Below the pieces are notes generated by a model. That model was not told the DNA's origin. It did not search any database and worked only from the letters and a program-made list of their open reading frames with translations. DNA of 32,000 nt from Flavobacteriaceae bacterium (lineage in GTDB: Bacteria > Bacteroidota > Bacteroidia > Flavobacteriales > Flavobacteriaceae), in contig OZ245049.1 in NCBI GenBank assembly GCA_965224465.1, positions 3,630,001 through 3,662,000 on the forward strand, read 5' to 3'. The first letter of the stretch is position 1; each line of letters begins with the position of its first letter. The translations under genes were made by a program, and so were the position numbers. Of the stretch, positions 1,379-32,000 are shown piece after piece.

Positions 1379-1393
1379 ATATATAAGATGATT

Positions 1394-8583: not shown

Positions 8584-9045
8584 ATGCCAGGACCAGCAGC
8601 AACAATATCACACATGCACACATGCCCTATGTATAGTGGAACAAGCCCACATACTGGCGGACCCATAATAGGACCGGGAGTGCCAACAGTTTTAATAGGA
8701 GGAAAACCTGCCGCAGTAATGGGGGATCAATGTACTTGTTCGGGACCACCCGATGTAATTGTAGAAGGTGTTTCTACCGTATTAATTGGCGGGAGACCCG
8801 CAGCTACTATGGGATCGAAAACAGGTCATGGAGGCGTAGTAAGCATTGGAGATCCTACCGTACTTATTGGTACAAGATGTAGTGCTCCTACCGCAATAAT
8901 GCCTTTGAGTCAAATACCTTTTCCTAAAATCACTCTAATTAATAGAATATTAGGGAATACAAGGCAAGCGCAAGAAAACCAAAAAAAAATAAAAGAAGAA
9001 GCTAAGAAACATGGATATCTTAGTGATTTTAATTTAAGTATCTAA
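8584..9045 (+). CDS. PAAR-domain protein (spike-tip protein of contractile secretion systems)
   Basis: 153 aa. A Gly-rich beta-strand repeat pattern has two PAAR-type motifs (VLIGGKPAAVMGD and VLIGGRPAATMGS), plus the conserved H/C pattern (HMHTCP...CTCSGP...GHGG). A short Lys-rich C-terminal extension follows. Confidence 0.9.
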   Translation: MPGPAATISHMHTCPMYSGTSPHTGGPIIGPGVPTVLIGGKPAAVMGDQCTCSGPPDVIVEGVSTVLIGGRPAATMGSKTGHGGVVSIGDPTVLIGTRCSAPTAIMPLSQIPFPKITLINRILGNTRQAQENQKKIKEEAKKHGYLSDFNLSI

Positions 9046-9056
9046 AATAAAAATCT

Positions 9057-10589
9057 ATGAGAGTAAGTTATCCGCTAAAAGATATTAGTACTGATGCCGA
9101 AGCAAAAAATTATTTGGGGAATCGTAACCTTTTTGGAAAATACCCTATTGGAGCGCATAATGCTTGGCATGGTGGTATACATTTAGAAGGTGCAAGTAGA
9201 GAAATACAATGCATTGCGCAAGGTCGTATAATTGCCTACCGCTTTGCAAAAGAGTATGAAAAAACGATAATAAACAATACGGATCACTTATATTCCAACG
9301 GATTTATACTCATACAACACGATTATAAAAGTAAAGAAAAACAAAAAATGACCTTTTATAGTTTGTATCATCATTTAATGCCCGAATCGGATATTATTAG
9401 TGATGAAAACAGTGCAAAAATACCTAATTTTTTAAGTAAAAGTTCTTATATTATAATAAGTAAAGAAGGCATACCAATTGAAGGACTTAATGCAAGAGTT
9501 TTAAAAAACAATAAAATAGATATATCTGAAAAAGGAGTGTCTGTAGTAATACCTAAAGGAAGTACTGTAAATTTAGCTCCTTTAGAAGACAACAAAATAA
9601 ACACTGGAAGTTACAAGCGAATTAACTACACAGATAAAGATGGTAAAACATATACCGATATTTATATATATGTAAAAATCGGAAAACAAGTAAAAAAAAT
9701 AACAGAAAATACCTTAGAAATAATTACTACAGAAGATGAAACAGAAAATAAATCTGTTTTAGGAGCTAGAGTAAGAGAAAGTGGAAAGTCATCAGCCAAA
9801 ATTATAAAAATAGTGCCTTATGATGATGTCTTAGAAATAGATGAAACAGTAAAAGGTAATTGGAAAAAATTAAAAGATGGATCTGGCTTTATACATAACT
9901 CTGGTTTCACAACAAAAATTACATTTGATAATTCCAAAGGAAAACTAGACGAAATTACAGCTTGTGATATACCAATAAAAGCAGGTATAACCATTGGTTA
10001 TACAGGTAACCTAGGTTTTAAAGGATACAAAGGATATAAAGCAACCCACTTAGAAGTATTTACGACAGATGATGTTTTTGAGTTTTTAAGTAATGAAAAA
10101 AAAGATGGAAAAGAAGAACAATATTTTACAAATATTATAGCAGGTACAAAATTAAAAACAAGCCTATTTTACAAAGTAGATATTAAAGCAAATACCCCTA
10201 TAAAAGTACTTAAAATTAAAGGAGATTATGCACAAATAAAAACTACAAATATAGAAGGTGTTGTAGGGAAAAGTCTTTTAGGTGGGTATAAATCTGCAAC
10301 AGGAGGAAGTTACTATACCGTAAGCCCTAACAATGTATCAAAATTAAATCCAAGTTTTAATAATATATTACCTAGTGACTTAAAAAAATTATATTGGGTT
10401 AACAGATGTGATTCTTCTGGTAATAATCTTACTAAAAGTGAAGAAAATAAAAAAATAACCGATGCTAAAAAAATAAAAAAAACATACATTCCCTATAGAA
10501 AAGTAACATACAAACCTAAAACTAAAGGAACATTTTGGATAGAAAAAACATCTATTTCCAAAATAGCAGAAAAAATAAAAAAAAATTAG
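9057..10589 (+). CDS. Atypical M23/LytM-like domain protein with inserted SH3b-like modules
   Basis: The two halves of the M23 fold are recognisable but lie far apart. The first half is NAWHGGIHLEG...IAQGRIIAY...GFILIQHDY...FYSLYHHL (aa about 35-106). The second is IKAGITIGYTGNLGFKGYKGYKATHLEVFT (aa about 306-335). Between and after them are SH3b-like stretches (LGARVRESGKSSAKIIKIVPYDDVLEIDETVKGNWKKLKDGSGFIH). The ORF ends in an A9 tract and overlaps the next ORF by 55 nt. Confidence 0.7.
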   Translation: MRVSYPLKDISTDAEAKNYLGNRNLFGKYPIGAHNAWHGGIHLEGASREIQCIAQGRIIAYRFAKEYEKTIINNTDHLYSNGFILIQHDYKSKEKQKMTFYSLYHHLMPESDIISDENSAKIPNFLSKSSYIIISKEGIPIEGLNARVLKNNKIDISEKGVSVVIPKGSTVNLAPLEDNKINTGSYKRINYTDKDGKTYTDIYIYVKIGKQVKKITENTLEIITTEDETENKSVLGARVRESGKSSAKIIKIVPYDDVLEIDETVKGNWKKLKDGSGFIHNSGFTTKITFDNSKGKLDEITACDIPIKAGITIGYTGNLGFKGYKGYKATHLEVFTTDDVFEFLSNEKKDGKEEQYFTNIIAGTKLKTSLFYKVDIKANTPIKVLKIKGDYAQIKTTNIEGVVGKSLLGGYKSATGGSYYTVSPNNVSKLNPSFNNILPSDLKKLYWVNRCDSSGNNLTKSEENKKITDAKKIKKTYIPYRKVTYKPKTKGTFWIEKTSISKIAEKIKKN

Positions 10590-12853
10590 ATATAATTACC
10601 TCAATTATTCCTGACTATTTTTTAACAGAAGAACAAAAATACGAAACAGTTGAAAGAGAAGCCAAAACAGGAGAAAAAACTACATTATATGTAGATGTAT
10701 GTAAGGCATATATCGAAGTCCCTTTTAGAACCGATGTAGAAGAAGTAACTGTAGAAAAAGAAAAAGTAGTTGACTTACGTAAATTTAAAAAAGCAAAAGA
10801 CGATAAAAAAGACCTTTGGTATAAAGTAGTATTAGATGATACAACTAGTAGCCAATGTGTAGCAGTAAAAGGCTGGGTAAAAGAAAAGGATCTTGACAAA
10901 TTTAGCGCTTACGATTGGCAAAAATTTGGTTTTAAAGATCTAGACGCAGGTAATGAATACATATACTCTGTAAAAGACTTACGTGAGGCAACAGATAGTG
11001 CCGATTTTGTAACCGAAATTTGGGATAAAACAATAGATACAGATGGCAATAAAGTATTAGATATACTAGAGCTTATTAGAGCGTTTAGTAAACCAGAAAT
11101 AGCACAAAAACTATCTCGTTTGGTATGTAAGCACAAAAATGAATGGTCTTATACTATGGACGAAATAAAACCAGAAGTAAAAGAACTCTATGATTTTGGT
11201 ATACAATTAGAAGAAGTTACAGCCGAAAAACAAAAACTAGAAACCGAAAGGGATGATAGTTTAGCCAAAATGGAAACCAAAATAGAAAATTTAATGTGGT
11301 GGGATGAGGCAAGTAAAAAACCCTACACAGCACCCGTAAAAGAAGAAGATAAAACAAAAACGAGTAGCACCAAAAGACCTTCTATGTTGCCAGAAGGTAC
11401 AGTGGTAGAAGAAATACCACAAAAAGATGTTGTACCTTTAGACAATAAAACAACAGCAGCTAAACCAGATGCTAAACCAACGAAAGATAGTATACCAACG
11501 ACAAGTACAACCGCTGCTCCAGCACCAGAAACTAAAGTAGAAGAAAAAGAAGTACCACCAAAACGTATGTTTCCAAGTACAGATATAGTACATCATTTTC
11601 ATCCTATTGCTTGGGTGGAGCAGATGAGACTTGTTTTTGGGGAAGGTGGCGGAGATTGTGAATCTCTTATTTGGGGAAATAAAGTAAGTTGTGAATTTAG
11701 AAAACGAGTAATTCAAATATCTAAACGTCTTGAATGCGATCCTAATCATTTAATGGGAGCTATGGCTTTAGAAACTGGAGGGAAATTTGACCCTAAGGTC
11801 GATAATGGTTTAGGTAAAGACAAAGATGGTATTGGTTACATCGGATTAATTCAGCTTGGAAATGATGCTATAAAAGATATGAATAGGAATTATTTTCTAC
11901 ATAGGGCAAAAATTAAAAAGAAAGATTTAAGAGCAATGTCTGCCGTAGAGCAATTATGCTATGTAGAATATTATTTAGCCAAACATAAAGGTAAACTTAA
12001 AACCTTAGCAGATTTTTATTTAGCAATACTTTGGCCAGTAGCAGTAGGTCACGGATCAGAACCAAATTATATCATTTTTGATGATGATTCAGTAGGGGAT
12101 AAGAAAACAGCATACCATTCAAACCCTACATTTCATAGAGAAGAAGATGAATATAAGAAGAATAGTAAAGGAAAAATCTATAAAAGACATGGTAAGGCAG
12201 GAGGTAAAACGTATGTTTGGGAAATAGCTGAAGCTATACAAGAATGGTATGATAAGGGAGTGCCTGAAAAAAACACTTCTAGTACCTGTACTTGTAATAC
12301 AGATTGCTCATGTGGTAAAGGATGTATTGATTTAACAGGTAAAGTTACTTGGGTGAGTCAGTATAATAAATCGGAGCTAAGAAAGAATAAACAAGGGCGC
12401 TTAGAGATGTATACAAAGGCTTGCTGGAAAACTTCAAGAAAGTTATTGCTTAATGCAGGGCTTGGCACTGATTCCGGTAAAAATATGAGTCCTATTATTA
12501 CGGCTTTAGAAAATAAAGATCATACTTCTATAGCATTAACAACAGATGCTCAATCTGGTGTTAGTTATATTGATGTTCAGTTAGAAAAAGGAAACCCTGT
12601 CTTAGTTGGCTTAAACCATACACTTTCTTATGGAATAAATGATAAGACAACAGACCATTTTGTTGTTATTGTTGGTAGAGCTTGCGAAAATAATAAAACA
12701 TACTATCGATTTTATGAAGTAGGTACTAGTTGGGCTCATTTAGGGCAGCATTCAAATAACAAATTTTTTTTAGGAGATGATTTTTCTTTAAGGTCATATA
12801 GGAAAAATAAATCTGAAAAATATTTAGTAAGTCAAGTACGTGAAAATTTTTAA
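10535..12853 (+). CDS. Full-length polymorphic toxin: conserved N-terminal/handle region + SLT/lysozyme-like domain + C39-like papain-fold peptidase domain
   Basis: 772 aa. The N-terminal part is unique to this gene. Nucleotides 11094-11640 are the handle shared with the downstream cassettes: a coiled coil, a P/T/K-rich linker and HHFHPIAWVEQM. The variable C-terminus follows. Its first domain is lysozyme-like (HLMGAMALETGGKFDP...GYIGLIQLGNDAI). Its second is Cys/His papain-like (TWVSQY...KACWKTS...TDHFVVIVGR...FYEVGTS). The only Met start overlaps the upstream ORF, so it may really be a -1 frameshift continuation of it. Confidence 0.8.
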   Translation: MDRKNIYFQNSRKNKKKLDIITSIIPDYFLTEEQKYETVEREAKTGEKTTLYVDVCKAYIEVPFRTDVEEVTVEKEKVVDLRKFKKAKDDKKDLWYKVVLDDTTSSQCVAVKGWVKEKDLDKFSAYDWQKFGFKDLDAGNEYIYSVKDLREATDSADFVTEIWDKTIDTDGNKVLDILELIRAFSKPEIAQKLSRLVCKHKNEWSYTMDEIKPEVKELYDFGIQLEEVTAEKQKLETERDDSLAKMETKIENLMWWDEASKKPYTAPVKEEDKTKTSSTKRPSMLPEGTVVEEIPQKDVVPLDNKTTAAKPDAKPTKDSIPTTSTTAAPAPETKVEEKEVPPKRMFPSTDIVHHFHPIAWVEQMRLVFGEGGGDCESLIWGNKVSCEFRKRVIQISKRLECDPNHLMGAMALETGGKFDPKVDNGLGKDKDGIGYIGLIQLGNDAIKDMNRNYFLHRAKIKKKDLRAMSAVEQLCYVEYYLAKHKGKLKTLADFYLAILWPVAVGHGSEPNYIIFDDDSVGDKKTAYHSNPTFHREEDEYKKNSKGKIYKRHGKAGGKTYVWEIAEAIQEWYDKGVPEKNTSSTCTCNTDCSCGKGCIDLTGKVTWVSQYNKSELRKNKQGRLEMYTKACWKTSRKLLLNAGLGTDSGKNMSPIITALENKDHTSIALTTDAQSGVSYIDVQLEKGNPVLVGLNHTLSYGINDKTTDHFVVIVGRACENNKTYYRFYEVGTSWAHLGQHSNNKFFLGDDFSLRSYRKNKSEKYLVSQVRENF
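10577..10585 (+). other. A9 homopolymer / A_AAA_AAA slippery heptamer at the junction of ORFs 9057-10589 and 10535-12853
   Basis: In the upstream frame the codons read ATA AAA AAA AAT TAG. A -1 shift on A_AAA_AAA (10577-10583) continues as AAA TTA GAT ATA ATT ACC (K L D I I T), which is the downstream ORF frame. Confidence 0.35.
11094..11640 (+). repeat. Handle repeat, copy 1 (master copy inside the full-length toxin gene)
   Basis: It begins CAGAAATAGCACAAAAACTATCTCG and ends ...CATCATTTTCATCCTATTGCTTGGGTGGAGCAGATGAGACTTGTTTTTGG. It differs from copies 4 and 6 by only about ten substitutions, by eye. Confidence 0.9.
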
Positions 12854-12857
12854 TAGC

Positions 12858-13715
12858 ATGGTTAGAGTAATAAAAGTAGTTTGTTTATGTATCTTTTTTA
12901 GTTCTTGTTTTAACGTGAAAGAAGATACTAATAAAAAAGGACTAAATAATAAAGTTATTAACGCTACTTCTAATAAAAAAATAAGTCAAAATTATTTTAA
13001 AAACTTAAAGGAGTTTAAAAGTTTTATAGAAGGGAAGAGGTGGGTTGATGTAAAAGATGAATTCCCTTGTTATGAAGACAGTAGAAGTATAATGATGAAA
13101 GGAAATTATGTTTATATATATACAATGGAGCCCACTAAGTGCAAAATAGAAAGTATAAAGCAAGTAGATTCAAAAACCTTAGAGATTAAAGTAGAAAAAG
13201 GAAGTAGCCGAGGAAATAGAACTCTTCAGCTTGAGATTATTAGCTTAGAAGAACGTTTAGTTAAATGGACAAATTATTATGAAGAAACATTTGAAGCTAA
13301 GCCTTATGATATTATTTGTAAAGATTGGAGTAAAGAACCTGAAAAGAAAGAATCTTACCATACCAGTATGTATAACATTAAAAATGCTACATTAAGTATA
13401 AATGGAAAATGGGAAGGTTTATATTATTTCAAAGGTGGTGAGTTAGATCTTGATTATATCTTAGATTTTAAAGAAGGTAGAATGCAGTTAAATGTTCAGG
13501 CTCGTCAATATGGTTATTCAGATCAATTAAAAGCTGTTCAATTAGGTGATACTCTAGGTTTATATCATCATAAAAATATATCAGGCTATAATTATGATGA
13601 AGATCGAGCATATGATTTTTTAAAATTTTATAAATCGTCAGATGGCAAGTTTTATTTTGAAGGTAAACTACCTTATTTACCAAAAGGAGCTATTGAGTTT
13701 GATAAAGTAAAATAA
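12858..13715 (+). CDS. Lipoprotein, candidate immunity protein I1 for the full-length toxin
   Basis: Signal peptide with lipobox-like Cys (MVRVIKVVCLCIFFSSC). It starts 4 nt after the toxin stop, or overlaps it if GTG 12840 is used. No recognisable enzymatic motif. Position and topology fit immunity against a periplasm-acting toxin. Confidence 0.7.
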   Translation: MVRVIKVVCLCIFFSSCFNVKEDTNKKGLNNKVINATSNKKISQNYFKNLKEFKSFIEGKRWVDVKDEFPCYEDSRSIMMKGNYVYIYTMEPTKCKIESIKQVDSKTLEIKVEKGSSRGNRTLQLEIISLEERLVKWTNYYEETFEAKPYDIICKDWSKEPEKKESYHTSMYNIKNATLSINGKWEGLYYFKGGELDLDYILDFKEGRMQLNVQARQYGYSDQLKAVQLGDTLGLYHHKNISGYNYDEDRAYDFLKFYKSSDGKFYFEGKLPYLPKGAIEFDKVK

Positions 13716-13733
13716 CCCTCGCTACCGTGCTAT

Positions 13734-15098
13734 TTGTACGCTGCTCCAGCACCAGAAACTAAAGTAGAAGAAAAAGAAGTGCCACCAGAACGTATGTTTC
13801 CAAGTACCAATATAGTACATCATTTTCATCCTATTGCTTGGGTGGAGCAGATGAGGTTGTTGGAAAAACAAACTGGTGAATGTTATTGTAATAGAGATTT
13901 TGAAGCTGACGACCTTAAAGTAATGGTAAAAAGAATTAGAGATAATACTTTCTATAAAGGTAAGTCTATTACTAAATTTCATCAAGAAAAATTATTTCAT
14001 GGTCGTGGTGGTGTACCAGAATCAGATCGGAACTTTGAGAAGTTTTCAGATGTACTAAACAAATCGTTTACTAAATACGGCATAACAAATTGTATTCATA
14101 AAATACATTTCCTAGCTAACATGTATGTAGAGACGATGTATTTTACAGCCACAGAGGAACTTCCAAATGAATCAAACGCTAATTATAAGAAATATAAACC
14201 TTATGTTGGTCGTGGATTTATGCATTTAACTTGGGATTATCATTACAAAGAATATTCTGAAATAGCTGGAAATACAGATATTAAATCAGGAACTAACTAT
14301 AAAAAAGCAGCAAGTAATCTAGAATTGGCAGCTGATACAGCAGGTTGGTATTGGAAAAAAAGTAAACTCAATTCCTTGTCAGAAACAGATGACATTTTAA
14401 AAACCACAAAAAAAATTAATGGTGGTACTAATGGTTATAAACATCGTAGAATTGCTTGGATTAAACTTAAAGAAATATTTAATTACCCTCATGGTTGTAG
14501 TACCGATAGTAGCAAACACGAAGCACCTGTATATGGTGAAGGTGTTTTAGAAGAAATGCGTGAATGGGCAGATAAGCATGTGCAGTATAAAATGGAAAGT
14601 GAATGGGTTGGGAAAAGACGAACTGGATTACGTTCTAGTCAAACAAAAGATGCTCTTGGACGATTAGATTGTTCAGAATTTGTATGTCGATATTTATATA
14701 AATTAGGAGTAACAAATACTTTAAAAGTTATTGTAACAAGTGGTATGACAAACCAAACTGATTTCAGGAAAAATCTTGGAAATGATAATATTGAACATAT
14801 TTATGGAAGTGAGAAGGAAGATTTTATTCCTCAAGCAGGCGATATATTTGTTTGGTCAAGATCTAGTAGCGATGGTCATACAGGTATTGTGCATAGTGTA
14901 GATGGAAACAAAATTACTATACTTGAAGCAATTGGTCAAGGTGGATCAGCGGATAAAACTTTTAACGCTAACAATGGTGGATATGAAGGTAAAAACTCTA
15001 CTCGTACATCCGTTTATAAAAGAAATGGTGGTGCATTATCTGGTCATGGAGGTTGGAAAGGGTATTTTAGACCTCTTAACTATTCAAAAATAAAATAA
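13734..15098 (+). CDS. Orphan toxin cassette T2: short handle remnant + GH19 (chitinase/endolysin-like) + NlpC/P60-CHAP-type peptidase
   Basis: It begins inside the handle (APAPETKVEEKEVPPERMFPSTNIVHHFHPIAWVEQM) and has no ATG; the track start is a TTG. GH19 motifs are IHFLANMYVETMYF and YVGRGFMHLTW. The C-terminal papain-like peptidase shows GRLDCSEFVCRYLY...AGDIFVW...GHTGIVHSVDGNKITILEA. Confidence 0.75.
   Translation: MYAAPAPETKVEEKEVPPERMFPSTNIVHHFHPIAWVEQMRLLEKQTGECYCNRDFEADDLKVMVKRIRDNTFYKGKSITKFHQEKLFHGRGGVPESDRNFEKFSDVLNKSFTKYGITNCIHKIHFLANMYVETMYFTATEELPNESNANYKKYKPYVGRGFMHLTWDYHYKEYSEIAGNTDIKSGTNYKKAASNLELAADTAGWYWKKSKLNSLSETDDILKTTKKINGGTNGYKHRRIAWIKLKEIFNYPHGCSTDSSKHEAPVYGEGVLEEMREWADKHVQYKMESEWVGKRRTGLRSSQTKDALGRLDCSEFVCRYLYKLGVTNTLKVIVTSGMTNQTDFRKNLGNDNIEHIYGSEKEDFIPQAGDIFVWSRSSSDGHTGIVHSVDGNKITILEAIGQGGSADKTFNANNGGYEGKNSTRTSVYKRNGGALSGHGGWKGYFRPLNYSKIK
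13739..13856 (+). repeat. Handle repeat, copy 2 (3'-terminal about 120 nt only)
   Basis: CGCTGCTCCAGCACCAGAAACTAAAGTAGAAG...GGGTGGAGCAGATGAGG. It matches the last part of copy 1. Confidence 0.85.
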
Positions 15099-15103
15099 AA
15101 CAC

Positions 15104-15892
15104 ATGAAACAAACAATAAAATTTATCAGCATACTACTTATTTTTTTTTCTTGTAAAGGTCAGATTAAACAAAAAACAGAACCTTTTCAAATCTTAACCA
15201 ATCAAGAATTAAAATTAAAATCTATAAATGAACTCCGATTGTTTAGAAATGAAGTTTTTGCTCGCAAAGGATATGTGTTTAAAGATGGGGAATTAAACAA
15301 TTATTTTAAAGCACAAAGCTGGTACATACCTAATAATGATAATAACACCATTGTGTTTTCAGAAAAAGAACAAGTATATATCTATGAAATAAAAAAAACA
15401 GAAAAAACCTTAGCGTTAAATACTAATAGAAAATGTTTAAGTAATTTAAGTAAACAATATTCTGACTTATACCCTCTGACAAATAAAGATTTACTTAATG
15501 AAAAGTTTAAATACAGCAAACAGTTGTATGGTATTGAAATCCAGAGCCCTAGTCCTATGATAAAAGGCAATCTTTGTGGTGGTGGAAGTGTTTGGAATCT
15601 TAAATGTTCAGGAAATGTTAATTACCAATTATTATTTTACACTTGTGATTCTGATAATCTTTATATGAGTTTAGCTATTATTAAGAATGAAGATGATATG
15701 GATTTTCTAAAACTTTACGGCACTTATGTTCATGATTTTAAAAATGTAGATAAATATAGTTTTATTTTAGACCATGATAACTTAGATATTATCAAAACCA
15801 ATTACACCAATACAGAAGATTACAAAGAAAAAGAAGTTTCAAAAGAAGTAAAAAAATATAAGTTAACTGATAATGGTATTATAGAGTTATAG
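15104..15892 (+). CDS. Lipoprotein with YARHG domain, candidate immunity I2
   Basis: Signal/lipobox MKQTIKFISILLIFFSC. LRLFRNEVFARKGYVFKDGELNNYFKAQSWY matches the YARHG domain signature. It starts 5 nt after the T2 stop. Confidence 0.75.
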   Translation: MKQTIKFISILLIFFSCKGQIKQKTEPFQILTNQELKLKSINELRLFRNEVFARKGYVFKDGELNNYFKAQSWYIPNNDNNTIVFSEKEQVYIYEIKKTEKTLALNTNRKCLSNLSKQYSDLYPLTNKDLLNEKFKYSKQLYGIEIQSPSPMIKGNLCGGGSVWNLKCSGNVNYQLLFYTCDSDNLYMSLAIIKNEDDMDFLKLYGTYVHDFKNVDKYSFILDHDNLDIIKTNYTNTEDYKEKEVSKEVKKYKLTDNGIIEL

Positions 15893-15946
15893 ATCGAAAG
15901 GTAAAAAAATGTATTTTAGAAAGATTAACTATACGAAAAAAATATA

Positions 15947-16958: not shown

Positions 16959-16973
16959 AAGTTTATCATAACA

Positions 16974-17954: not shown

Positions 17955-18410
17955 CTCTATGATTTTGGTATACAATTAGAAGAAGTTACAGCCGAAAAAC
18001 AAAAACTAGAAACCGAAAGGGATGATAGTTTAGCCAAAATGGAAACCAAAATAGAAAATTTAATGTGGTGGGATGAGGCAAGTAAAAAAACCTACACACC
18101 ACCAGTAAAAGAAGAAGATAAAACAAAAACGAGTAGCACCAAAAGACCTTCTATGTTGCCGGAAGGTACTGTGGTAGAAGAAATACCACAAAAAGATGTT
18201 GTACCTTTAGACAATAAAACAACAGCAGTTAAACCAGATGCTAAACCAACGGAAGATAGTATACCAACGACAAGTACAACCGCTGCTCCAACACCAGAAA
18301 CTAAAGTAGAAGAAAAAGAAGTACCACCAAAACGTATGTTTCCTAAAAGCAATATAGTACATCACTTTCATCCAATTGCTTGGGTGGAGCAGATGAAACT
18401 TGTTTTTGGT
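17955..18410 (+). repeat. Handle repeat, copy 3 (about 455 nt, 5'-truncated)
   Basis: It starts at CTCTATGATTTTGGTATACAATTAGAAG (= 11186 in copy 1), immediately after the TAA of the preceding immunity gene. Confidence 0.88.
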
Positions 18411-23258: not shown

Positions 23259-23322
23259 TTATTAAGTTGAGAGTTTAATTATAAAAAAAATCAGTATTTT
23301 AAATTTACTTTAATCAAGTATA

Positions 23323-23883
23323 CAGAAATAGCACAAAAACTATCTCGTTTGGTATGTAAGCATAAAAATGAATGGTCTTATACTATGGACGAAATAAAAC
23401 CAGAAGTAAAAGAACTCTATGATTTTGGTATACAATTAGAAGAAGTTACAGCCGAAAAACAAAAACTAGAAACCGAAAGGGATGATAGTTTAGCCAAAAT
23501 GGAAACCAAAATAGAAAATTTAATGTGGTGGGATGAGGCAAGTAAAAAAACCTACACAGCACCCATAAAAGAAGAAGATAAAACAAAAACGAGTAGCACC
23601 AAAAGACCTTCTATGTTGCCAGAAGGTACAGTGGTAGAAGAAATACCACAAAAAGATGTTGTACCTTTATACAATAAAACAACAGCAGCTAAACCAGATG
23701 CTAAACCAGATGCTAAACCAACGGAAGATAGTATACCAACGACAAGTACAACCGCTGCTCCAGCACCAGAAACTAAAGTAGAAGAAAAAGAAGTACCACC
23801 AAAACGTATGTTTCCAAGTACCAATATAGTACATCATTTTCATCCAATTGCTTGGGTGGAGCAGATGAAACTTGTTTTTGGGG
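23323..23883 (+). repeat. Handle repeat, copy 4 (full length, with a 12-nt internal duplication)
   Basis: Same 5' boundary as copies 1 and 6. It has one extra CCAGATGCTAAA unit at 23691-23720. Confidence 0.9.
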
Positions 23884-25217: not shown

Positions 25218-26100
25218 CTTATATTCTTGTAAACGAACTAATAATGTAGTAAGTAATAAAAAGGAGTTAAGCTTAGCCTTATCTTTATGCGATTCGATAG
25301 ACTCACAAGGAGCTAATAGGGTTTTTTGTAAGGGTTGGTTAAGCAACAAAGGTATTCAAAAGGCTATTTTATTTTCAAAAACTAGAACTAACTCTAAAGA
25401 AGAGTTTTTTGCTGAATTTTTTACAGAAAAAGATTTCAATAGTCCATTAGTCAAAGTATATGATTTCATTGAGGACTGTCCGGTTGATTTTAGTGTAAAT
25501 TTCATTGAGGACTCATTTTCTGTTACAGATATTAATAATAATGGAATAAAAGAAGTGTCATTTTTATACGAGATAGTATGTCAAGGAGGGATTGGTCCAA
25601 TAAAAATGAAGTCAATCCTAATTGAAGGACGTCAAAAATATGTAATCCGAGGATTTAGATTAGATGATGTGTCAATAAAAAATAATAAGACGCCTAATTA
25701 CCCAAGATCTATAATAGATGAAAATTTTATTAATGCTCCACATAGCTTTTTGGATTTTTCAAGTAAAAAATGGATGAAATATCATGGAACAAGATTATTA
25801 AATTTTGACAAAAAAAATAAATATTCAATCAAAAAGGCATCTCTAATTGACTCAGATATTGTTTTATATCTATCAAATAATCAAAATAAAAAATTTAAAA
25901 CCCCTTATTTTCTTGAAGATGAAAACCCTAAAATTTGGATAAAAAACAAAAAGATAATCCTATATTATGGTGATCACTATGGGAATTCTATAGAATCAAC
26001 TTGGTCTTATTTTTCAAAACAAGATAATTTAATTTTAGAAAGCCTTACTGGAACATTTCCAATCAAAAATAAGGAACAAGATAATTTAAAAGTATCTTAA
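25159..26100 (+). CDS. Lipoprotein, candidate immunity I4
   Basis: Signal/lipobox MILKKYQPIVVVIILALVASLYSC. It overlaps the T4 3' end by 59 nt. Confidence 0.7.
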   Translation: MILKKYQPIVVVIILALVASLYSCKRTNNVVSNKKELSLALSLCDSIDSQGANRVFCKGWLSNKGIQKAILFSKTRTNSKEEFFAEFFTEKDFNSPLVKVYDFIEDCPVDFSVNFIEDSFSVTDINNNGIKEVSFLYEIVCQGGIGPIKMKSILIEGRQKYVIRGFRLDDVSIKNNKTPNYPRSIIDENFINAPHSFLDFSSKKWMKYHGTRLLNFDKKNKYSIKKASLIDSDIVLYLSNNQNKKFKTPYFLEDENPKIWIKNKKIILYYGDHYGNSIESTWSYFSKQDNLILESLTGTFPIKNKEQDNLKVS

Positions 26101-27220
26101 ATTCAACTAATAAACGCAACTTTTCGATTTGATTCTATGATGGTTATATTTTCAAAACAGAAAAGTAGGAAAACCTACCTTTCTTGTCTTGATGGATATG
26201 TATCTTACGGTCTCAAATCTCGAAAAAAGAAGTTGTATGAAACACATCACCCAAGCACAAAGATACACAATTTGCTGCATGTTAAAACAAGGTTATAAAC
26301 AGGTTGAGATAGCAGCTGCTATAGGAAAAGACAAGTCTGTTATTAGCAAAGAGATTAAGCGTAATTCAGACAAAAGAAATGGAGTTTACAAGCATGAATT
26401 AGCCCAAAAAAAGTATGCTAAACGTCATAAAGAAAAGCCTAAAAGAAAACGCTTTACAGAAGATATTCAACAAGCAATAGAATTGTTATTGCGAGACGAT
26501 TATAGTCCTGAGCAAGTAGTTGGTATCCTAAAAAAACAAGGTAAAGAAACGGTGTCTATTGAGCGTATATATCAGCATATTAGGGAAGACAAGAGGAATG
26601 ATGGTGATTTACATACACACCTTCGCAGACAGGGAAGGAGATATAGAAAACGTGGCTCATCAAAGGATTCTAGAGGGGTTATAAAGAATCGCATTAGTAT
26701 AGAACAACGACCTGAAGTTGTTGAACAAAGAAATCGATTTGGAGATTTAGAGGTCGATTTAATCATAGGTAAAAACCATAATCAAGCCATACTTACCGTA
26801 AATGATAGAGCTTCTGGAATGCTTAAAATGAAAAAAGTAAGCTCTAAAGAAGCAGTTGTTGTCACCAAAGCTATCAATGAAATATTAGAAGACTGGAAGC
26901 CTTATCTACATACTATAACAGCTGATAATGGAAAAGAATTTGCAGGCCATGAGCAGGTTGCAGAAAATTTATGTATTGATTACTTTTTTGCGCATCCATA
27001 TCACTCTTGGGAAAGAGGATCTAACGAAAATTTAAATGGTTTGATTAGACAATATTTTGCCAAAGGAAGTGACTTTACAAACCTAACAGATCAAAGAATC
27101 AAAGAGGTAGAAACAAAATTAAATAACAGACCTAGGAAGAGACATAAATACGAAAACCCTATATTTGTAATGGAACAATTATTATTTAACTAAAAGTTGC
27201 GTTTGTGACTTGAATTCAGC
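26098..27220 (+). mobile_element. IS30-family insertion sequence, complete copy C
   Basis: Same termini as copy A (AATTCAACTAATAAACGCAAC at the left, GTTGCGTTTGTGACTTGAATTCAGC at the right). It sits between I4 and the handle-truncated T5 cassette. Left boundary uncertain by a few bp. Confidence 0.85.
26189..27193 (+). CDS. IS30-family DDE transposase
   Basis: 334 aa, 2 aa different from the 98-1102 copy (V/I and Q/E). Confidence 0.93.
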   Translation: MMDMYLTVSNLEKRSCMKHITQAQRYTICCMLKQGYKQVEIAAAIGKDKSVISKEIKRNSDKRNGVYKHELAQKKYAKRHKEKPKRKRFTEDIQQAIELLLRDDYSPEQVVGILKKQGKETVSIERIYQHIREDKRNDGDLHTHLRRQGRRYRKRGSSKDSRGVIKNRISIEQRPEVVEQRNRFGDLEVDLIIGKNHNQAILTVNDRASGMLKMKKVSSKEAVVVTKAINEILEDWKPYLHTITADNGKEFAGHEQVAENLCIDYFFAHPYHSWERGSNENLNGLIRQYFAKGSDFTNLTDQRIKEVETKLNNRPRKRHKYENPIFVMEQLLFN

Positions 27221-27277
27221 TATGTAAAATAAGCGGTTTAAATATTAATATCAAAGAAATAGACATAGAGAAAGTAT

Positions 27278-28810
27278 ATGGTTTATTACAAGAGTCTAAG
27301 AATTGTGTTTATCAAACCATGTAATAAAGTAGAAGAAAAAGAAGTGCCACCAAAACGTATGTTTCCTAAAAGCAATATAGTACATCACTTTCATCCAATT
27401 GCTTGGGTGGAGCAGATGAGACTTGTTTTTGGAGAGGGTGGTGGGAATTGTTTATGCTCTAGAGACCTTACTGAAGATGAAGTTACCAACATGGTAAAAC
27501 GAATTTCAGGAAAAGGCAGCCTTTGGAATGGTATTTATGAATCCTGTGATATTACCGATAAAAGTTTTTCTTCATTTAGAGATGAACTCAATAAGATGTT
27601 TAAAAAACATGGGTTTAATACATGTATTGATAAGATATCATTTTTAGCGCAAGCAGCACACGAAACAGGAGGCTTTCAGCAGAATAAAGAGGAGAAAAGT
27701 AAATACTTATCAAGTCAAAGTACTTATAAGGGAAGAGGAATGATCCAATTGACTGGAAATAAAGATAAAAGTACAGGTTATTATAATTTAGCGGGTGTAT
27801 ATAAATCTTATTCAAAGTATGTTAATGATCCAAATGTTGAAAGTGACCCAGATTTAGTTTCAAAAAATTTACACTATACAGTAGATTCAAGCGGTTGGTT
27901 TTTCAAATCCAAAAAAGTTCCTAAATGGAATAAGAAATGGTTAAAATACGATAATCTCAGAAGGGAAAGACTAAGCCATTTTAGTGAAGGTTTAGGTAAA
28001 AATTTACTAGAATTATCTCCTTTTATAAATAAAGATGAAAAGTACTTTTGGTTACAATCGAAAATTATAAATGGTTATTTTAAATCAGATACACTAAAAA
28101 GTCACCCAAATGGTTGGAATGATAGGGTAGAATCTTTTATGCAATTAAGATCTGTTTTTCATTTTGGAACAGAGTGTGTAAATAATCTTGAAAAGTTAGA
28201 AATAGAGGAAAGGGCTCCATGGATGAAGATCGCAATAGAAGAAGCAGAAAAAGCGGCTGGATGTCATGAAGGTAAAGAGCCTTTGCTAACAATGGGTAAG
28301 AGTTACTTAACATTTGCAGGTAACAATAAATCTCCTGATGACGATGTAGATGGTCAATGGTGTGCATCTTTTTTATCATGGTGTATTGATAAATCTAAAT
28401 TTACGGTTCATTCTGAAAAATGGAAAAGATCCAATTCACAGGAATTTAGAAAGAGTGCTGAAGCTGGAGTATTTTATAAAAAGATAGATAAACCCATATT
28501 TGGTGCTTTAGCTGTTTATACTAAATATAGTGATAGTGATCATGGCCATATAGGTTTTATTGCAGGGAAAACTAAAGCAGGAAAGTATCTTTTATTAGGT
28601 GGTAATCAAGGTGATACTATAAGAGCAGCCTCTTATGGAGAAAAGACAAAAACAAAATACTTGAATGGTTTTTATATACCGAAAGATTACAATGTAACAG
28701 ATAAAGATTATCTCACAAATGATGAACAGAACTATTCGAGTTCTAGTGAATTAAATTATAAACTAGGAATTTACACAAAAGTCAAAAATGATTCAGAGAA
28801 AACAAGTTAG
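27278..28810 (+). CDS. Orphan toxin cassette T5: minimal handle remnant + GH19 + CHAP (TIGR02594-like) peptidase
   Basis: Handle homology is present only from 27325 (KVEEKEVPPKRMFPKSNIVHHFHPIAWVEQM). An unrelated 16-codon leader with an ATG at 27278 precedes it. GH19 motifs: ISFLAQAAHETGGF and YKGRGMIQLTG. CHAP-like motifs: QWCASFLSWCIDKS...GALAVYTKYSDSDHGHIGFIAGKTKAGKYLLLGGNQ. Confidence 0.75.
   Translation: MVYYKSLRIVFIKPCNKVEEKEVPPKRMFPKSNIVHHFHPIAWVEQMRLVFGEGGGNCLCSRDLTEDEVTNMVKRISGKGSLWNGIYESCDITDKSFSSFRDELNKMFKKHGFNTCIDKISFLAQAAHETGGFQQNKEEKSKYLSSQSTYKGRGMIQLTGNKDKSTGYYNLAGVYKSYSKYVNDPNVESDPDLVSKNLHYTVDSSGWFFKSKKVPKWNKKWLKYDNLRRERLSHFSEGLGKNLLELSPFINKDEKYFWLQSKIINGYFKSDTLKSHPNGWNDRVESFMQLRSVFHFGTECVNNLEKLEIEERAPWMKIAIEEAEKAAGCHEGKEPLLTMGKSYLTFAGNNKSPDDDVDGQWCASFLSWCIDKSKFTVHSEKWKRSNSQEFRKSAEAGVFYKKIDKPIFGALAVYTKYSDSDHGHIGFIAGKTKAGKYLLLGGNQGDTIRAASYGEKTKTKYLNGFYIPKDYNVTDKDYLTNDEQNYSSSSELNYKLGIYTKVKNDSEKTS
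27325..27432 (+). repeat. Handle repeat, copy 5 (3'-terminal about 110 nt only)
   Basis: TAAAGTAGAAGAAAAAGAAGTGCCACCAAAACG...GAGCAGATGAGACTTGTTTTTGG. Confidence 0.85.
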
Positions 28811-29513
28811 CTTATTCATATCAATTCTTCTAATTTTATTGTTTAATGTTAGTTGTAAGAGAAAAATAAAACAGGAAATTTTTGTTAAAAAAGAGACAGA
28901 AGTAAAACCTGTAATTAAACAAGTATCCAAAGTTTATGTTGATAATTTAACCCGTGATAAATTCGATTCTCTCTTAAATTCAGGAATAATTGATAATATT
29001 GATTATAATGGAGATTTAGTTTCGTGTTACAAAATAGTAGACAAATCGGGGGGGCATTATCTAATTTTAACTCATGATTACACCAAGAATATAATTTACT
29101 TCTACTATGCTGAACAAGAAGCTTTTGGAGTGAAGCTAATATGGAGCATAAGTGATTCGGTTGTTCAAACTGATTATTCGGAAGAATATGATATATATTT
29201 TCTCAAAAATTACATTCATGTTGCTGATTTTGATAATGATGATTTAGTTGATATAATTCTGGTATATAAGACAAATTCAAAAGAAGATTATGATAGATTA
29301 AAAATTAGAATCTTTCATAAAGATTCTAAGGTTTTAATAAATCACAAAGGAGCTTCCTTGGATGATGAAAGGGAAACTAAAATAGATCAAAGTTTTTATT
29401 CTTTACCCAAATCGATAAGGCAACAAGTTTTTTTAGATATCAAAGAAATCAACGTTGAAGTTTTAAGTATTAACTCAGATGTGTTAAAGAAAATTGGTGT
29501 TAATTTATATTAA
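28788..29513 (+). CDS. Lipoprotein, candidate immunity I5
   Basis: 241 aa with a lipobox (LLFNVSC). Its ATG overlaps the T5 stop by 23 nt. Contains VADFDNDDLVDIILVY, an FG-GAP-like Asp-rich loop. A near-identical copy is at 21334-22059. Confidence 0.75.
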   Translation: MIQRKQVSLFISILLILLFNVSCKRKIKQEIFVKKETEVKPVIKQVSKVYVDNLTRDKFDSLLNSGIIDNIDYNGDLVSCYKIVDKSGGHYLILTHDYTKNIIYFYYAEQEAFGVKLIWSISDSVVQTDYSEEYDIYFLKNYIHVADFDNDDLVDIILVYKTNSKEDYDRLKIRIFHKDSKVLINHKGASLDDERETKIDQSFYSLPKSIRQQVFLDIKEINVEVLSINSDVLKKIGVNLY

Positions 29514-29601
29514 ATCCCCGCCCCCGCTAGTTCAATGTTATTAAGTTGAGAGTTTAATTATAAAAAAAATCAGTATTTTAAATTTACTTTAATCAAGTAT
29601 A

Positions 29602-30148
29602 CAGAAATAGCACAAAAACTATCTCGTTTGGTATGTAAGCACAAAAATGAATGGTCTTATACTATGGACGAAATAAAACCAGAAGTAAAAGAACTCTATG
29701 ATTTTGGTATACAATTAGAAGAAGTTACAGCCGAAAAACAAAAACTAGAAACTGAAAGGGATGATAGTTTAGCCAAAATGGAAACCAAAATAGAAAATTT
29801 AATGTGGTGGGATGAGGCAAGTAAAAAAACCTACACAGCACCCATAAAAGAAGAAGATAAAACAAAAACGAGTAGCACCAAAAGACCTTCTATGTTGCCA
29901 GAAGGTACAGTGGTAGAAGAAATACCACAAAAAGATGTTGTACCTTTAGACAATAAAACAACAGCAGCTAAACCAGATGCTAAACCACCGGAAGATAGTA
30001 TACCAACGACAAGTACAACCGCTGCTCCAGCACCAGAAACTAAAGTAGAAGAAAAAGAAGTGCCACCAAAACGTATGTTTCCAAGTACAGATATAGTACA
30101 TCATTTTCATCCTATTGCTTGGGTGGAGCAGATGAAGCTTATTTTTGG
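29602..30148 (+). repeat. Handle repeat, copy 6 (full length)
   Basis: Same 5' boundary as copies 1 and 4. It diverges from them after GAGCAGATGAAGCTTATTTTTGG. Confidence 0.9.
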
Positions 30149-31523
30149 AACGCAAGCTAAGTATTGTACCCAAGAAATGAAAGTAAGGGCATTCTTACGA
30201 CTTATAAAATACAAAGAAGGAAAACCCGGAGAGGAAGGGTATAGACAACTCTTTGGAGGAAAGTCTTTTTCAGGGTTTAATGACCACCCTAAAAATTCTG
30301 AAACATATGTAGTAAATGGCAAATCTATAACCTCAGATGCGGCAGGTGCGTATCAAATTATGGGAGGCACATGGGATACATCACCACTTAATGACAAAAA
30401 AGAGAAATATGGAGTCAAAGATTTTAGTCCGTTATCTCAAGATTATGCAGCTTTAGTTTTGTTAAAGTATCAAAAGAAAGATACTAAACCTAGTGATTAT
30501 CAAGTAAAGAATTGGGGCAATAAATGGGCTGATAAAATGATAAAAAAATGGAAGATGAAATATCCGAAAATTACTAGAGATTCTTTTCCAAAACATACCA
30601 ATAGATATATAAACGCTACAGGCGATATTATCCAAATGTTGATAGACAATGATCTGGATAAAGCTTTATTGACAGCTGCTATTACATGGGCTAGTTTCCC
30701 TGACTCTATATATGGACAAGAGCCTTCATCGTATTCAATCGTTGATGCAAAAGTTAAGTTTAGAGAACTTTTATTACAAGAAATAAAAGGGGAAACCGAT
30801 TTATATTTAGAAGAAGGTTTTTTAAAGAAACTTGGATATAAATGTTGTGACAGTCAAAATAATGCTATTACAGGAACTTCTCCTGAGGGTAAAGAGCCTA
30901 TAGATTTACGTTTAACCATTCCTTGGCATTCACAATTTACAGCAGATACTTTTGGACCTTATCATCACCAAAGTTGGATGTGCTATGATACCTCATTAAT
31001 GATTCTACAAGAATTTGTAGGATTAACAGCGGGAGGTAAAAGAGGAAATAAATCAACAACAGTAAATGGCAGAGACCTTGGTACTTCAAATAATGTAATT
31101 CAAGTTTCTTTGGAGAATACGGAAGTAGATGGAAGCTATACTGTTACAGTGCCTGTTGTAAAAAATACTGAAACTGGTATTGTTTATTTAGATCAAGAAT
31201 TAGAAAAAGGTAACCCTATATTAGTTGGTGTCCGTCATACTTATAAAAAGGTTAAAAAAACAAAGGGTTATAAATATGAGCAAAATTATGATAAATCTAC
31301 GGATCACTTTGTGATTGTAGTTGGTCGTGGTTATGAAAATGGAAAAAGGTATTTTCTTTTTTATGAAGTAGGTACAAGTTGTTCCGATAAAGGGCAACAC
31401 GATAAAAATAGATTATTTGTAAATGATGATTGGTCTATAGCTGGGATACCACAGCATAACCTGACGAGAACTTATACATTAACTCAAGTAAGAGGAAATA
31501 AAACTAACGGTAACTTTAAGTAA
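29628..31523 (+). CDS. Orphan toxin cassette T6: full handle + GH104 (phage lambda lysozyme-like lytic transglycosylase) + C39-like papain-fold peptidase
   Basis: Handle homology starts at 29602. The GH104 region aligns by eye to lambda R: AFLRLIKYKEGK...GYRQLFGGKSFSGFNDHP...AAGAYQIMGGTWD...YGVKDFSPLSQDYAALVLL...WASFPDSIYGQ. The C-terminal domain is homologous to that of the full-length toxin (IPWHSQF...WMCYDTSLMILQEF...TDHFVIVVGRG...FYEVGTS). Confidence 0.78.
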   Translation: MVCKHKNEWSYTMDEIKPEVKELYDFGIQLEEVTAEKQKLETERDDSLAKMETKIENLMWWDEASKKTYTAPIKEEDKTKTSSTKRPSMLPEGTVVEEIPQKDVVPLDNKTTAAKPDAKPPEDSIPTTSTTAAPAPETKVEEKEVPPKRMFPSTDIVHHFHPIAWVEQMKLIFGTQAKYCTQEMKVRAFLRLIKYKEGKPGEEGYRQLFGGKSFSGFNDHPKNSETYVVNGKSITSDAAGAYQIMGGTWDTSPLNDKKEKYGVKDFSPLSQDYAALVLLKYQKKDTKPSDYQVKNWGNKWADKMIKKWKMKYPKITRDSFPKHTNRYINATGDIIQMLIDNDLDKALLTAAITWASFPDSIYGQEPSSYSIVDAKVKFRELLLQEIKGETDLYLEEGFLKKLGYKCCDSQNNAITGTSPEGKEPIDLRLTIPWHSQFTADTFGPYHHQSWMCYDTSLMILQEFVGLTAGGKRGNKSTTVNGRDLGTSNNVIQVSLENTEVDGSYTVTVPVVKNTETGIVYLDQELEKGNPILVGVRHTYKKVKKTKGYKYEQNYDKSTDHFVIVVGRGYENGKRYFLFYEVGTSCSDKGQHDKNRLFVNDDWSIAGIPQHNLTRTYTLTQVRGNKTNGNFK

Positions 31524-31525
31524 TT

Positions 31526-32000
31526 ATGAAAAGTATAAATAAGTTTATCATAACAGTGTTATTTATAACTACAATCGCATGTAAAAATAATGCTCAAAAC
31601 ACAGACAATACAAATAGTACTCAAGAAATATTAACTGAATTACCCGATGAAATAGCTAATAAAACATGGGTTTATATTAATCCCATAGAGAAACAATGGT
31701 TTAAAACCATGTTAGAATATAATGATAGGGAATATATAAAGACAGAAACAAACTCCATTGATGTGCCTATAGATCTCTATGACCCTGTTAGATCTTCTCA
31801 AAAAATAGAGTCTATTACTGTAAATGATAAAGGTTATTCTATTAAGTTTAATAAGTCAAAAAAACTAGGAGGTATTGATTTTAAATGGCTAGATAAAAGT
31901 AAAGGATTAGGGATTTGGGAGATAAAGTACATAGATGAAGGATATGCGGAATTTGGAGATACAATTGTCAGAAAAAAAAGTGTGATAAAAAAATTTATTA
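31526..32000 (+). CDS. Lipoprotein, candidate immunity I6 (intact 5' end, runs off the window)
   Basis: The ATG at 31526 lies 2 nt after the T6 stop. MKSINKFIITVLFITTIACKNN is a signal peptide with a lipobox Cys. The sequence is identical by eye to the decapitated copy at 16959-17954. Confidence 0.72.
   Translation, partial: MKSINKFIITVLFITTIACKNNAQNTDNTNSTQEILTELPDEIANKTWVYINPIEKQWFKTMLEYNDREYIKTETNSIDVPIDLYDPVRSSQKIESITVNDKGYSIKFNKSKKLGGIDFKWLDKSKGLGIWEIKYIDEGYAEFGDTIVRKKSVIKKFI

Follow-up and report, generated by a model that had tools for sequence, protein, structure and literature searches.

A probable TseP-family effector locus of a type VI secretion system, with a PAAR tip gene and an array of orphan toxin–immunity cassettes, in a Flavobacteriaceae bacterium

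The 32,000-nucleotide (nt) stretch of a Flavobacteriaceae genome analysed here (GenBank assembly GCA_965224465.1, contig OZ245049.1, positions 3,630,001 to 3,662,000 of the forward strand; hereafter the window) carries, from position 8584 onward on its plus strand, a gene for a PAAR spike-tip protein followed by long open reading frames (ORFs) that alternate with small ones. The first long unit is a full-length effector gene that joins a conserved carrier to a toxin part, T1. Behind it lie five 5′-truncated toxin ORFs, T2 to T6, each opening within carrier sequence, and after every toxin ORF comes a small gene of the lipoprotein type (Table 1). This pattern of repeated segment, toxin and lipoprotein is real and far beyond chance. 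With good confidence, we read the locus as a polymorphic peptidoglycan-hydrolase effector of the TseP family, loaded onto the spike of a type VI secretion system (T6SS) of subtype iii (T6SSiii) and accompanied by its PAAR tip and an array of orphan toxin–immunity cassettes.

The boundary between carrier and toxin is set by a short junction peptide, HFHPIAWVEQM[KR]L, which occurs in all six cassettes and is followed in each by 406–475 amino acids (aa) of divergent sequence. The carrier end reads ...R.FP...VHHFHPIAWVEQM, and in the family alignment the string R.FP...V[YH]HFHPIA[FW]VEQMK is nearly invariant, with all similarity among family sequences lost immediately past it. At the nucleotide level, identity to T1 drops from about 29/30 to about 10/30, the background, within 30–60 nt past the start of the motif. 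On the carrier side, segment 11087–11643, the homology arm, recurs five more times at 88–98% nucleotide identity in a self-comparison of the window. Long copies of 460–570 nt start at 17950, 23317 and 29596, and short ones of about 120–140 nt lie at 13739 and 27316; the orphans retain between 29 and 162 codons of carrier sequence plus the junction, 94–98% identical in nucleotides to the expressed gene. The same boundary can be followed outside the Bacteroidota. In an Aeromonas homologue of 844 aa (L070) the junction is WHIYPIAMYGKK, located at residue 596; the corresponding string in the Pseudomonas homologues is WHFHPIEFISNMK, and proteins of different Aeromonas species are 85–88% identical before the junction and 21–28% identical after it. 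Judged from these alignments, the junction is an old, cross-phylum feature.

Table 1. Features of the window, with the effector locus first and the upstream elements last
Feature	Position	Strand	Evidence or remarks
Possible −7 element of Bacteroidota promoter type, TACATTTG, before PAAR gene	8411–8418	+	TAnnTTTG match
PAAR spike-tip protein, 153 aa, with ~55-aa C-terminal tail	8584–9045	+	Pfam PAAR_motif PF05488, E 5e-21, over cut-off
Full-length effector gene (carrier + T1 toxin), ~1265 aa	9057–12853	+	two ORFs here, 9057–10589 and 10535–12853
Carrier N-domain, TseP-N-like, with inserted SH3b-like sub-domains	9057–10589	+	family alignments, BLASTP, AlphaFold model
Poly-A run (A9) with 1-nt frameshift	10577–10585	+	A10 in L002, pairwise alignment
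Carrier middle domain (beta + helical, EF-hand-like loop), then disordered Pro/Thr/Lys-rich linker	10592–11593	+	model m7b861f7279e0
Junction motif of expressed gene, HFHPIAWVEQMRL	11594–11632	+	further copies at 13821, 18363, 23835, 27386, 30102
T1: lytic-transglycosylase-like domain + C39-like cysteine peptidase	11633–12853	+	PDB 9UDH, E 1e-18; 9JDD/9JG8, E 2e-32
I1, putative T1 immunity lipoprotein	12858–13715	+	probable ATG 12858, ORF open from 12840; N-terminus MVRVIKVVCLCIFFSSC
T2 orphan: 29 aa of carrier, junction, GH19-like + CHAP	13734–15098	+	CHAP E 1e-10; GH19 endolysin-like PDB matches
I2, putative immunity lipoprotein with YARHG domain	15104–15892	+	Pfam YARHG, E 2e-18
IS1595-family element	15947–16958	+	DDE_Tnp_IS1595 and its zinc ribbon; 29-nt terminal inverted repeats
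I6a, toxin-less copy of T6 immunity gene	16959–17954	+	100% identical to 31539–32000
T3 orphan (ORF from 18039): 108 aa of carrier, junction, PG_binding_1, further putative catalytic parts	17950–19829	+	
I3, putative immunity lipoprotein	19819–20739	+	N-terminus ...FIIFITSIVSC; overlaps T3 stop
Toxin remnant: internal T1-type transglycosylase piece, no junction, no C-terminal domain	20769–21302	+	47% identical to transglycosylase part of T1
I5a, duplicate of T5 immunity gene	21334–22059	+	98% identical to 28788–29513
IS4/DDE_5-type element	22091–23258	+	Pfam; 7-bp target site duplication TTATTAA at 22084–22090 and 23259–23265
T4 orphan (ORF from 23349): 162 aa of carrier, junction, GH19-like + CHAP	23259–25217	+	
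I4, putative immunity lipoprotein	25159–26100	+	N-terminus ...ILALVASLYSC; overlaps T4 end
IS30 (array copy)	26100–27216	+	Pfam; 25-nt inverted repeats; 99% identical to 71–1196 copy
T5 orphan: 36 aa before junction, then GH19-like + CHAP	27278–28810	+	
I5b, putative T5 immunity lipoprotein	28788–29513	+	
T6 orphan (ORF from 29628): 158 aa of carrier, junction, lambda-lysozyme-like + C39-like peptidase	29596–31523	+	
I6b, putative T6 immunity lipoprotein, cut by window end	31526–32000	+	ATG 31526; N-terminus MKSINKFIITVLFITTIAC
IS30 (upstream of locus)	71–1196	−	
FecR/ECF-sigma pair (upstream)	1394–3289		flanked by mobile elements
DDE_5 fragment (upstream)	3422–4114		
ISAs1-type transposase (upstream)	4285–5400		
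IS66 tnpC/tnpB (upstream)	5440–7264		
Partial IS30 copy (upstream)	7344–8021		

In the deposited sequence the effector gene is split into two ORFs that overlap in different frames. Exact-protein look-ups recovered L001 and L002, metagenome contigs that stem from a near-identical strain, the second of them via the PAAR protein. L002 is 99.2% identical to the window at the nucleotide level over 8392–11635 and has a single 1264-aa ORF after its PAAR gene. One A in a homopolymer is the only difference between the two sequences at the ORF overlap, and the family alignment runs colinearly across the break. The truncated 510-aa product is itself called on the source contig (P0004), which places the frameshift in the deposited genome. 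Programmed frameshifting at the A-run was considered and rejected: paralogues, P0001 for one, do not keep this site, and L002, with its intact gene, simply has one extra A. The A9 run could instead reflect an assembly error, reversible slipped-strand phase variation, or a lesion bypassed by transcriptional slippage. Few indels separate the window from L001 and L002, and just some of these are associated with homopolymers. Real mutation and assembly error are indistinguishable here; A/T runs of at least 8 bases number 23 in the window.

The toxin ends are divergent members of a few peptidoglycan-hydrolase classes rather than a set of wholly unrelated proteins. T2, T4 and T5 are mutually 27–31% identical, and T4 and T5 are called GH19-like by their similarity to T2. 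T6, matched by PDB entries 1AM7 (E 1e-9) and 9JDD (E 3e-27), is 34% identical to T1 in the C39-like half. Within the literature library searched, no relevant paper mentioned PDB entries 9JG8, 9JDD and 9UDH. For the catalytic domains of T3, Pfam and PDB searches recognised PG_binding_1 only; a LAS/M15-like motif (SGYR...NHMGKAID) in mid-T3, seen by eye and unrecognised by either search, is not claimed here. The C-terminal ~190 aa of T3 (19260–19829) exceed the part that is common to the T3-type modules of other carriers, which suggests a third domain.

Each of the small ORFs overlaps its toxin ORF or lies within 5 nt of it, and each begins with a hydrophobic stretch followed by a cysteine, the start expected of a lipoprotein. 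I1 is assigned to T1 by position alone and has no family or PDB match; the PDB search with I6 was likewise without a match. The pairing of a T2-type toxin with a YARHG lipoprotein, as in T2 and I2, recurs in L002. The toxin-less copy I6a lacks about its first five codons because the end of the IS1595 element removed them, and the intact second copy starts at the ATG of I6b. Among the relatives, an adjacent ORF lies behind 78 of the 87 junction-bearing ORFs, and by a crude test this follower has a lipoprotein-like start in 63 of the 87.

An earlier note on this DNA had described much of this layout, and its observations largely hold. The PAAR gene stands, as do the conserved segment shared by T2 to T6 and the lipoprotein gene after every toxin ORF; the remnant, the toxin-less immunity copy and the duplicated immunity copy are all real. 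Where the note saw an M23-like gene followed by a separate T1 gene, the single ORF of L002 and the A9/A10 difference leave one gene. The C-termini of T2 to T6, which it took to be unrelated, are not all so, as the identities given above show, and its description omitted three insertion sequences (IS elements) and the 1-nt frameshift.

The carrier, about 860 aa long, consists of a TseP-N-like N-domain, a middle domain, a disordered linker, and the short structured junction. Family alignments show invariant N-domain motifs, WHGGIHxE, GRIIAY, YSNGFxLxQH, FYSLYxHL, IKAG..IGY.G and HLEVF, and invariant or near-invariant residues H38, H42, E44, H88, H106, H331 and E333; these histidines and glutamates would be compatible with a metal site. 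Pfam recognises only an SH3b domain in the N-domain, and Foldseek matches of its AlphaFold model (mean confidence score, pLDDT, 83.7) to PDB folds are SH3b-like only. The 'M23-like' assignment of the earlier note could not be confirmed for this domain: there is no PF01551 match, Foldseek of the model returned no M23 structure, and hhalign against bona fide M23 domains gave a probability of 15%, over the IKAG...HLEVF half only. The N-domain motifs are HxxxH and HxE, versus HxxxD and HxH in M23. Peptidase_M23 matches in family members all fall within the C-terminal toxin parts. The database name 'M23 family metallopeptidase' (P0008, P0009, P0020, P0033) is an annotation trap for the N-domain, and probably comes from real M23 domains in the variable C-termini (residues ~812–998), not from the shared N-domain.

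The middle domain contains an EF-hand-like calcium-binding loop at about 11040–11080 (DTDGNKVLDILEL); Pfam EF-hand models match four or five family members, the Pseudomonas ones included, and a fold search of the middle domain against the PDB gave no match. In the middle-domain model a disordered linker of about 60 aa is followed by a strand (IVHH) and a helix (PIAWVEQMRLVF) at pLDDT 79–88. The confident prediction of both elements indicates that the junction is a small folded element and not linker alone.

What ties this carrier to a characterised effector is its homology to TseP of Aeromonas dhakensis, an 845-aa protein shown experimentally to be secreted by the T6SS (Wang et al., eLife 2025, PMC11893102). 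TseP-N (residues 1–603) is a Zn-dependent amidase that also binds VgrG2 and can restore assembly of the T6SS; its Zn-binding and catalytic residues are H19, H23, H109, H339, H359 and E539. TseP-C (604–845) is a lysozyme and binds VgrG2 on its own. The same study superposed the protein on the M23 protein 3SLU and tried Ca2+ in amidase assays (PMC11893102). The A. dhakensis type-strain protein, encoded behind PAAR–VgrG, aligns colinearly with the window carrier in BLASTP (E 6e-20, 1e-9 and 1e-3). L070 has a histidine at 339, and its junction coincides with the published TseP cut at 603/604. Together with the drop in identity among Aeromonas species, these matches point to a TseP-N-type domain in the carrier, the link to TseP itself being indirect.

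Like TseP, A. hydrophila AHA_1849 and P. syringae PSPTO_5204 (PMC11893102), the locus thus encodes a homologous N-domain, sharing WHGGIH, FYSLYxHL, IKAG..G.LG and HLEVF. It further shares a gene position behind a VgrG spike gene (in relatives; the window has no VgrG), a C-terminal peptidoglycan glycosidase and an immunity gene downstream, both predicted here, and an N/C boundary at the junction motif, at which Aeromonas species swap C-termini too. It differs in its Bacteroidota host and T6SSiii-type neighbours and in having a PAAR gene of its own, conserved in the tail, which always separates VgrG from effector. The toxin part comprises two predicted enzymes, a glycosidase plus a CHAP or C39-like peptidase, instead of a single lysozyme; a long disordered linker precedes the junction, and orphan arrays lie downstream. 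The family is large. A search with the 862-aa carrier retrieved full-length relatives of 900–1340 aa in Tenacibaculum maritimum, Fulvivirga, Aquimarina, Tamlana and other marine Bacteroidota, and the source contig encodes three more carrier paralogues (P0001, P0005, P0013). Scanning a single genome of each species gave 316 relatives, and an exhaustive search with the 510-aa N-part gave 765 clusters at E ≤ 1e-3. Aeromonas, Pseudomonas and Burkholderia have distant members of the family, encoded behind VgrG and close to TssM/IcmF. In five proteins of about 1000–1750 aa (P0266, P0290, P0304, P0332, P0314) the N-domain is internal, matching from residues 342–728, perhaps through fusion with VgrG, with PAAR or with some other domain for loading.

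Delivery by a T6SSiii is well supported by association. The PAAR protein has a partial match to the NCBIfam model T6SS_PAAR_dom, and its C-terminal tail is partly conserved among the homologous PAAR ORFs of related loci. In about 55 Bacteroidota loci such an ORF immediately precedes the carrier gene, ending at most 60 nt from the carrier start in 44 of them, and in 42 related loci a VgrG of about 610 aa (Phage_base_V, Phage_GPD) lies directly upstream of PAAR. In five loci (L014, L020, L030, L032, L044) the module abuts TssK, ClpV, TssE and the Bacteroidota-type Hcp (TssD, PF17642). This linkage to core genes is seen in relatives; the evidence from the source genome itself consists of VgrGs, five distinct ones (P0169–P0172, P0199; E ~1e-193 to 1e-218) being encoded on the 5,241,564-bp source contig. 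A concatenated VgrG+TssE+TssF-like query retrieved long VgrG-like proteins only, none from the source contig. Variants of the arrangement include two tandem PAAR genes (L045, 3981–5223) and two complete PAAR–carrier modules within 10 kb (L013, L022). As for expression of the operon, the −7 element upstream of the PAAR gene is the sole plus-strand TAnnTTTG copy in that upstream region and lies within the segment common to L002 (from 8392); it is weak evidence because the motif occurs at chance frequency across the window.

The orphans are connected to expressed effectors by several lines of evidence. In L002 the expressed slot holds a T2-type module with its YARHG lipoprotein and a different orphan lies behind; the expressed module thus differs between near-identical strains. 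T2 is 82% identical (aa) to the expressed C-terminus of L002. Most modules of the window are also present in other genomes, where they form the C-terminus of a full-length carrier: T1 is 66% identical to the C-termini of Aquimarina carriers, T4 51% to that of Aquimarina longa, and T5 75% to that of P0002. The T2 module (13860–15098) is 77% identical to the C-terminus of T. maritimum P0014 even as the carriers are only ~34% identical, suggesting exchange of toxin modules between genera. For T3 and T6 the matches on full-length carriers elsewhere are partial only (the first 288 aa of T3 are 43% identical to the C-terminus of P0034), and the remnant is 77% identical to residues 959–1103 of T. maritimum P0015. 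Within the array, I5 and a segment of carrier arm are duplicated with different toxins behind them, 21303–22090 plus 23258–23881 matching 28757–30148. Of the 39 Bacteroidota loci whose downstream sequence reaches 5 kb or more, 17 carry extra junction motifs, one to five in number and always downstream on the same strand. A similar plasticity extends to the experimentally studied genus: A. dhakensis CIP 107500 (L072, 10001–13141) encodes a 1046-aa protein with a TseP-type N-domain and a different C-terminus of 446 aa, so that Aeromonas is polymorphic at the same junction. The L002 orphan (15114–16391) is 29% identical to this A. dhakensis variant C-terminus (E 2e-28), beginning exactly at the HFHP/HFNP motif, and the two phyla therefore have a toxin module in common.

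In the mechanism that we propose, the PAAR protein and the carrier would be made from one operon, and the carrier would dock on the VgrG/PAAR spike through its TseP-N-like part, as the homology with TseP predicts. The spike would be fired into a neighbouring cell, in whose periplasm the two C-terminal enzymes would cut the glycan strands and peptide stems of the wall; by analogy with TseP-N, the carrier N-domain may itself be a zinc amidase. In the periplasm of the producer, the downstream lipoprotein would neutralise the toxin. RecA-type recombination at the carrier arms would then install a new toxin end together with its immunity gene. Secretion, the enzymatic activities, protection by the lipoproteins, and silence of the orphans until they are recombined are the parts of this scheme that we infer.

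Several results weigh against reading the locus as a T6SSiii-loaded TseP-family effector with a reserve array. In the assembly as deposited, a frameshift interrupts the expressed gene; no VgrG, VgrG remnant, Hcp or sheath gene was found in the window, and L002 likewise has no VgrG directly upstream. The N-domain matched no known enzyme fold by Pfam, Foldseek or hhalign, and, YARHG in I2 excepted, the immunity proteins of the window matched no known immunity family. L070 and L072 are taken as TseP orthologues on the basis of species, length (844 versus 845 aa), H339 and the boundary, not of a direct sequence match, and PDB sequence searches with L082 (GH73-type, Aeromonas) and P0046 (Pesticin-type) did not return the TseP-C structure 8XCL. 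In a further difference from TseP, the position equivalent to its catalytic H339 shows no conservation among the aligned Bacteroidota sequences. Finally, the silence of the orphans is presumed. If they are not silent, they could be stand-alone effectors with their own starts, which would load onto the spike by means of the carrier tail and junction that they have kept and be deployed as a simultaneous battery of toxins. The five orphan ORFs are indeed intact over 454–631 codons, T3, T4 and T6 retain 108–162 aa of carrier that include the VCKHKNEW-to-junction segment, TseP-C alone binds VgrG2, and an outward-facing −7-like motif sits in the IS30 end some 120 nt upstream of T5. Yet the first codon of the T4 and T6 ORFs is a TTG within carrier sequence, T2 and T5 keep merely 29–36 aa of it, and the retained arm lengths vary arbitrarily, as expected of recombination scars. 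The same modules also sit on full-length carriers in other genomes. Promoter scans found no Bacteroidota-type promoter motif in the short gaps before T2, T3, T4 and T6, which counts against independent expression; because motif counts are at chance level, the scans by themselves neither support nor exclude orphan transcription. On balance, stand-alone deployment seems unlikely.

This copy of the locus does look partly decayed, with no upstream VgrG, a frameshift, three IS elements and one truncated immunity gene, and one could go further and regard the whole as dead and out of use: a graveyard of onetime effector genes, riddled with IS elements, in an order that no longer serves any function. 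To the same side belong the toxin remnant and an upstream 8 kb given over almost entirely to IS elements. A graveyard, however, would hardly be expected to keep five long orphan ORFs, all immunity ORFs but one intact, and homology arms at 94–98% identity; the frameshift comes down to one base of an A9/A10 run, and a strain with 99% identity has that run intact. The paralogues P0001, P0005 and P0013 and the five VgrGs could moreover use the modules in trans, and immunity genes remain useful alone as a defence. Wholesale decay is accordingly rated as quite improbable. PAAR-like tips also occur on extracellular contractile injection systems (eCIS) and phage-tail-like particles, and the window, which holds a PAAR gene and no T6SS core gene, could in principle belong to one of these. 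ClpV and TssK, however, are specific to the T6SS, and it is beside these, TssE and Hcp (TssD) that the VgrG–PAAR–carrier module of relatives lies; the proteobacterial homologues sit beside TssM/IcmF and VgrG, and TseP is experimentally T6SS-secreted (PMC11893102). Delivery by a particle other than a T6SS is therefore a very remote prospect.

The spike-loaded effector with its orphan array, as favoured here, invites comparison with other polymorphic toxins. The generic features are all present: a conserved carrier, a sharp boundary, a variable toxin, a putative cognate immunity gene behind it, 5′-truncated orphans with homology arms, and a different module in the expressed slot of a related strain. 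As in the Rhs, CdiA and MafB systems, there is one expressed carrier, a motif at the start of the variable toxin, an immunity gene directly downstream, 5′-truncated orphan toxin–immunity pairs with a homology arm, and exchange of modules between strains. Unlike those systems, this one has a TseP-N-type carrier and the boundary HFHPIA[FW]VEQMK, shows no sign of an autoprotease or of a cage that cleaves itself, and has payloads that are all, in the cases seen here, predicted cell-wall enzymes with lipoprotein immunities. Pfam searches of the toxin ORFs revealed none of the RHS/YD, haemagglutinin-repeat, two-partner-secretion (TPS), VENN, PxxxxDPxGL or DUF1020 hallmarks. Rhs orphans have reportedly been seen in bee-gut T6SS. 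The MIX, FIX, RIX and PIX effectors also combine a conserved N-terminal loading domain with diverse C-terminal toxins, near vgrG or PAAR genes; their N-domains are unrelated to the present one, which belongs to a large carrier (~860 aa), is possibly enzymatic by its TseP-N homology, and is associated with prominent orphan arrays.

Seen against this background, the interpretation in the earlier note of a polymorphic, PAAR-linked toxin served by a T6SSiii was sound at its core. Its analogy with Rhs/CdiA orphan arrays is borne out by the L002 slot swap, the modules on full-length carriers and the orphans of 17 of 39 loci, its remark that YD, haemagglutinin and VENN features are absent agrees with Pfam, and its T6SSiii proposal gains from the VgrG-linked loci, their Hcp/ClpV/TssE/TssK flanks and the five source VgrGs. 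The separate M23 gene and the unrelated C-termini apart, what did not survive is the implied lack of a boundary motif, now found in every cassette, and the implied novelty of a carrier that belongs to the published TseP family (PMC11893102).

More broadly, we lean, if only modestly, toward the view that TseP-type carriers make up an unrecognised, phylum-spanning class of polymorphic T6SS toxins, with the boundary [WY]HF[HN]P...M[KR], orphan arrays in marine Bacteroidota, and modules that cross genera and phyla. In this view the boundary, a short strand and helix behind a disordered linker, would mark the site of toxin exchange, and in marine Bacteroidota the class would have expanded into VgrG–PAAR–carrier modules whose orphan arrays encode double-enzyme toxins against the cell wall. 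The TseP paper treats the chimerism of the protein as a single fusion event and describes no junction motif, orphan arrays or Bacteroidota members (PMC11893102), and literature searches turned up neither an account of the Bacteroidota family nor one of orphan arrays that follow TseP-type genes. If the view is correct, the single fusion event would be recast as ongoing modular exchange, and T6SSiii would gain its first orphan-array system outside Rhs. On the present evidence the TseP family is a genuinely polymorphic toxin system, in which toxin ends change at a defined point and spare cassettes are stored. It is widespread in marine Bacteroidota and now extends to the T6SSiii of that phylum, whose effectors outside the gut Bacteroidales are poorly known. 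The junction motif offers a search handle for hundreds of new pairs of cell-wall enzymes and their lipoprotein inhibitors in marine Flavobacteriia, including the fish pathogen Tenacibaculum maritimum. Carrier and boundary also suggest a natural scaffold for mounting engineered lytic enzymes on the T6SS, an aim that the TseP authors share. No principle is overturned: the orphan logic is that already known from Rhs/CdiA, on a new carrier.

The IS elements of the array and its flank complete the description. For the IS4/DDE_5-type element, an empty site is kept at 29525–29560. The −7-like motif at the right end of the array IS30, TATATTTG, lies on the plus strand at 27160–27167, ahead of the T5 start; it is of chance frequency in the window and might drive the T5 orphan. 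Upstream of the locus, positions 1–8021 consist nearly entirely of mobile elements, among which a FecR/ECF (extracytoplasmic function) sigma pair is embedded. In the near-identical contig L001 this pair has other neighbours on its sigma side, pointing to IS-mediated rearrangement.

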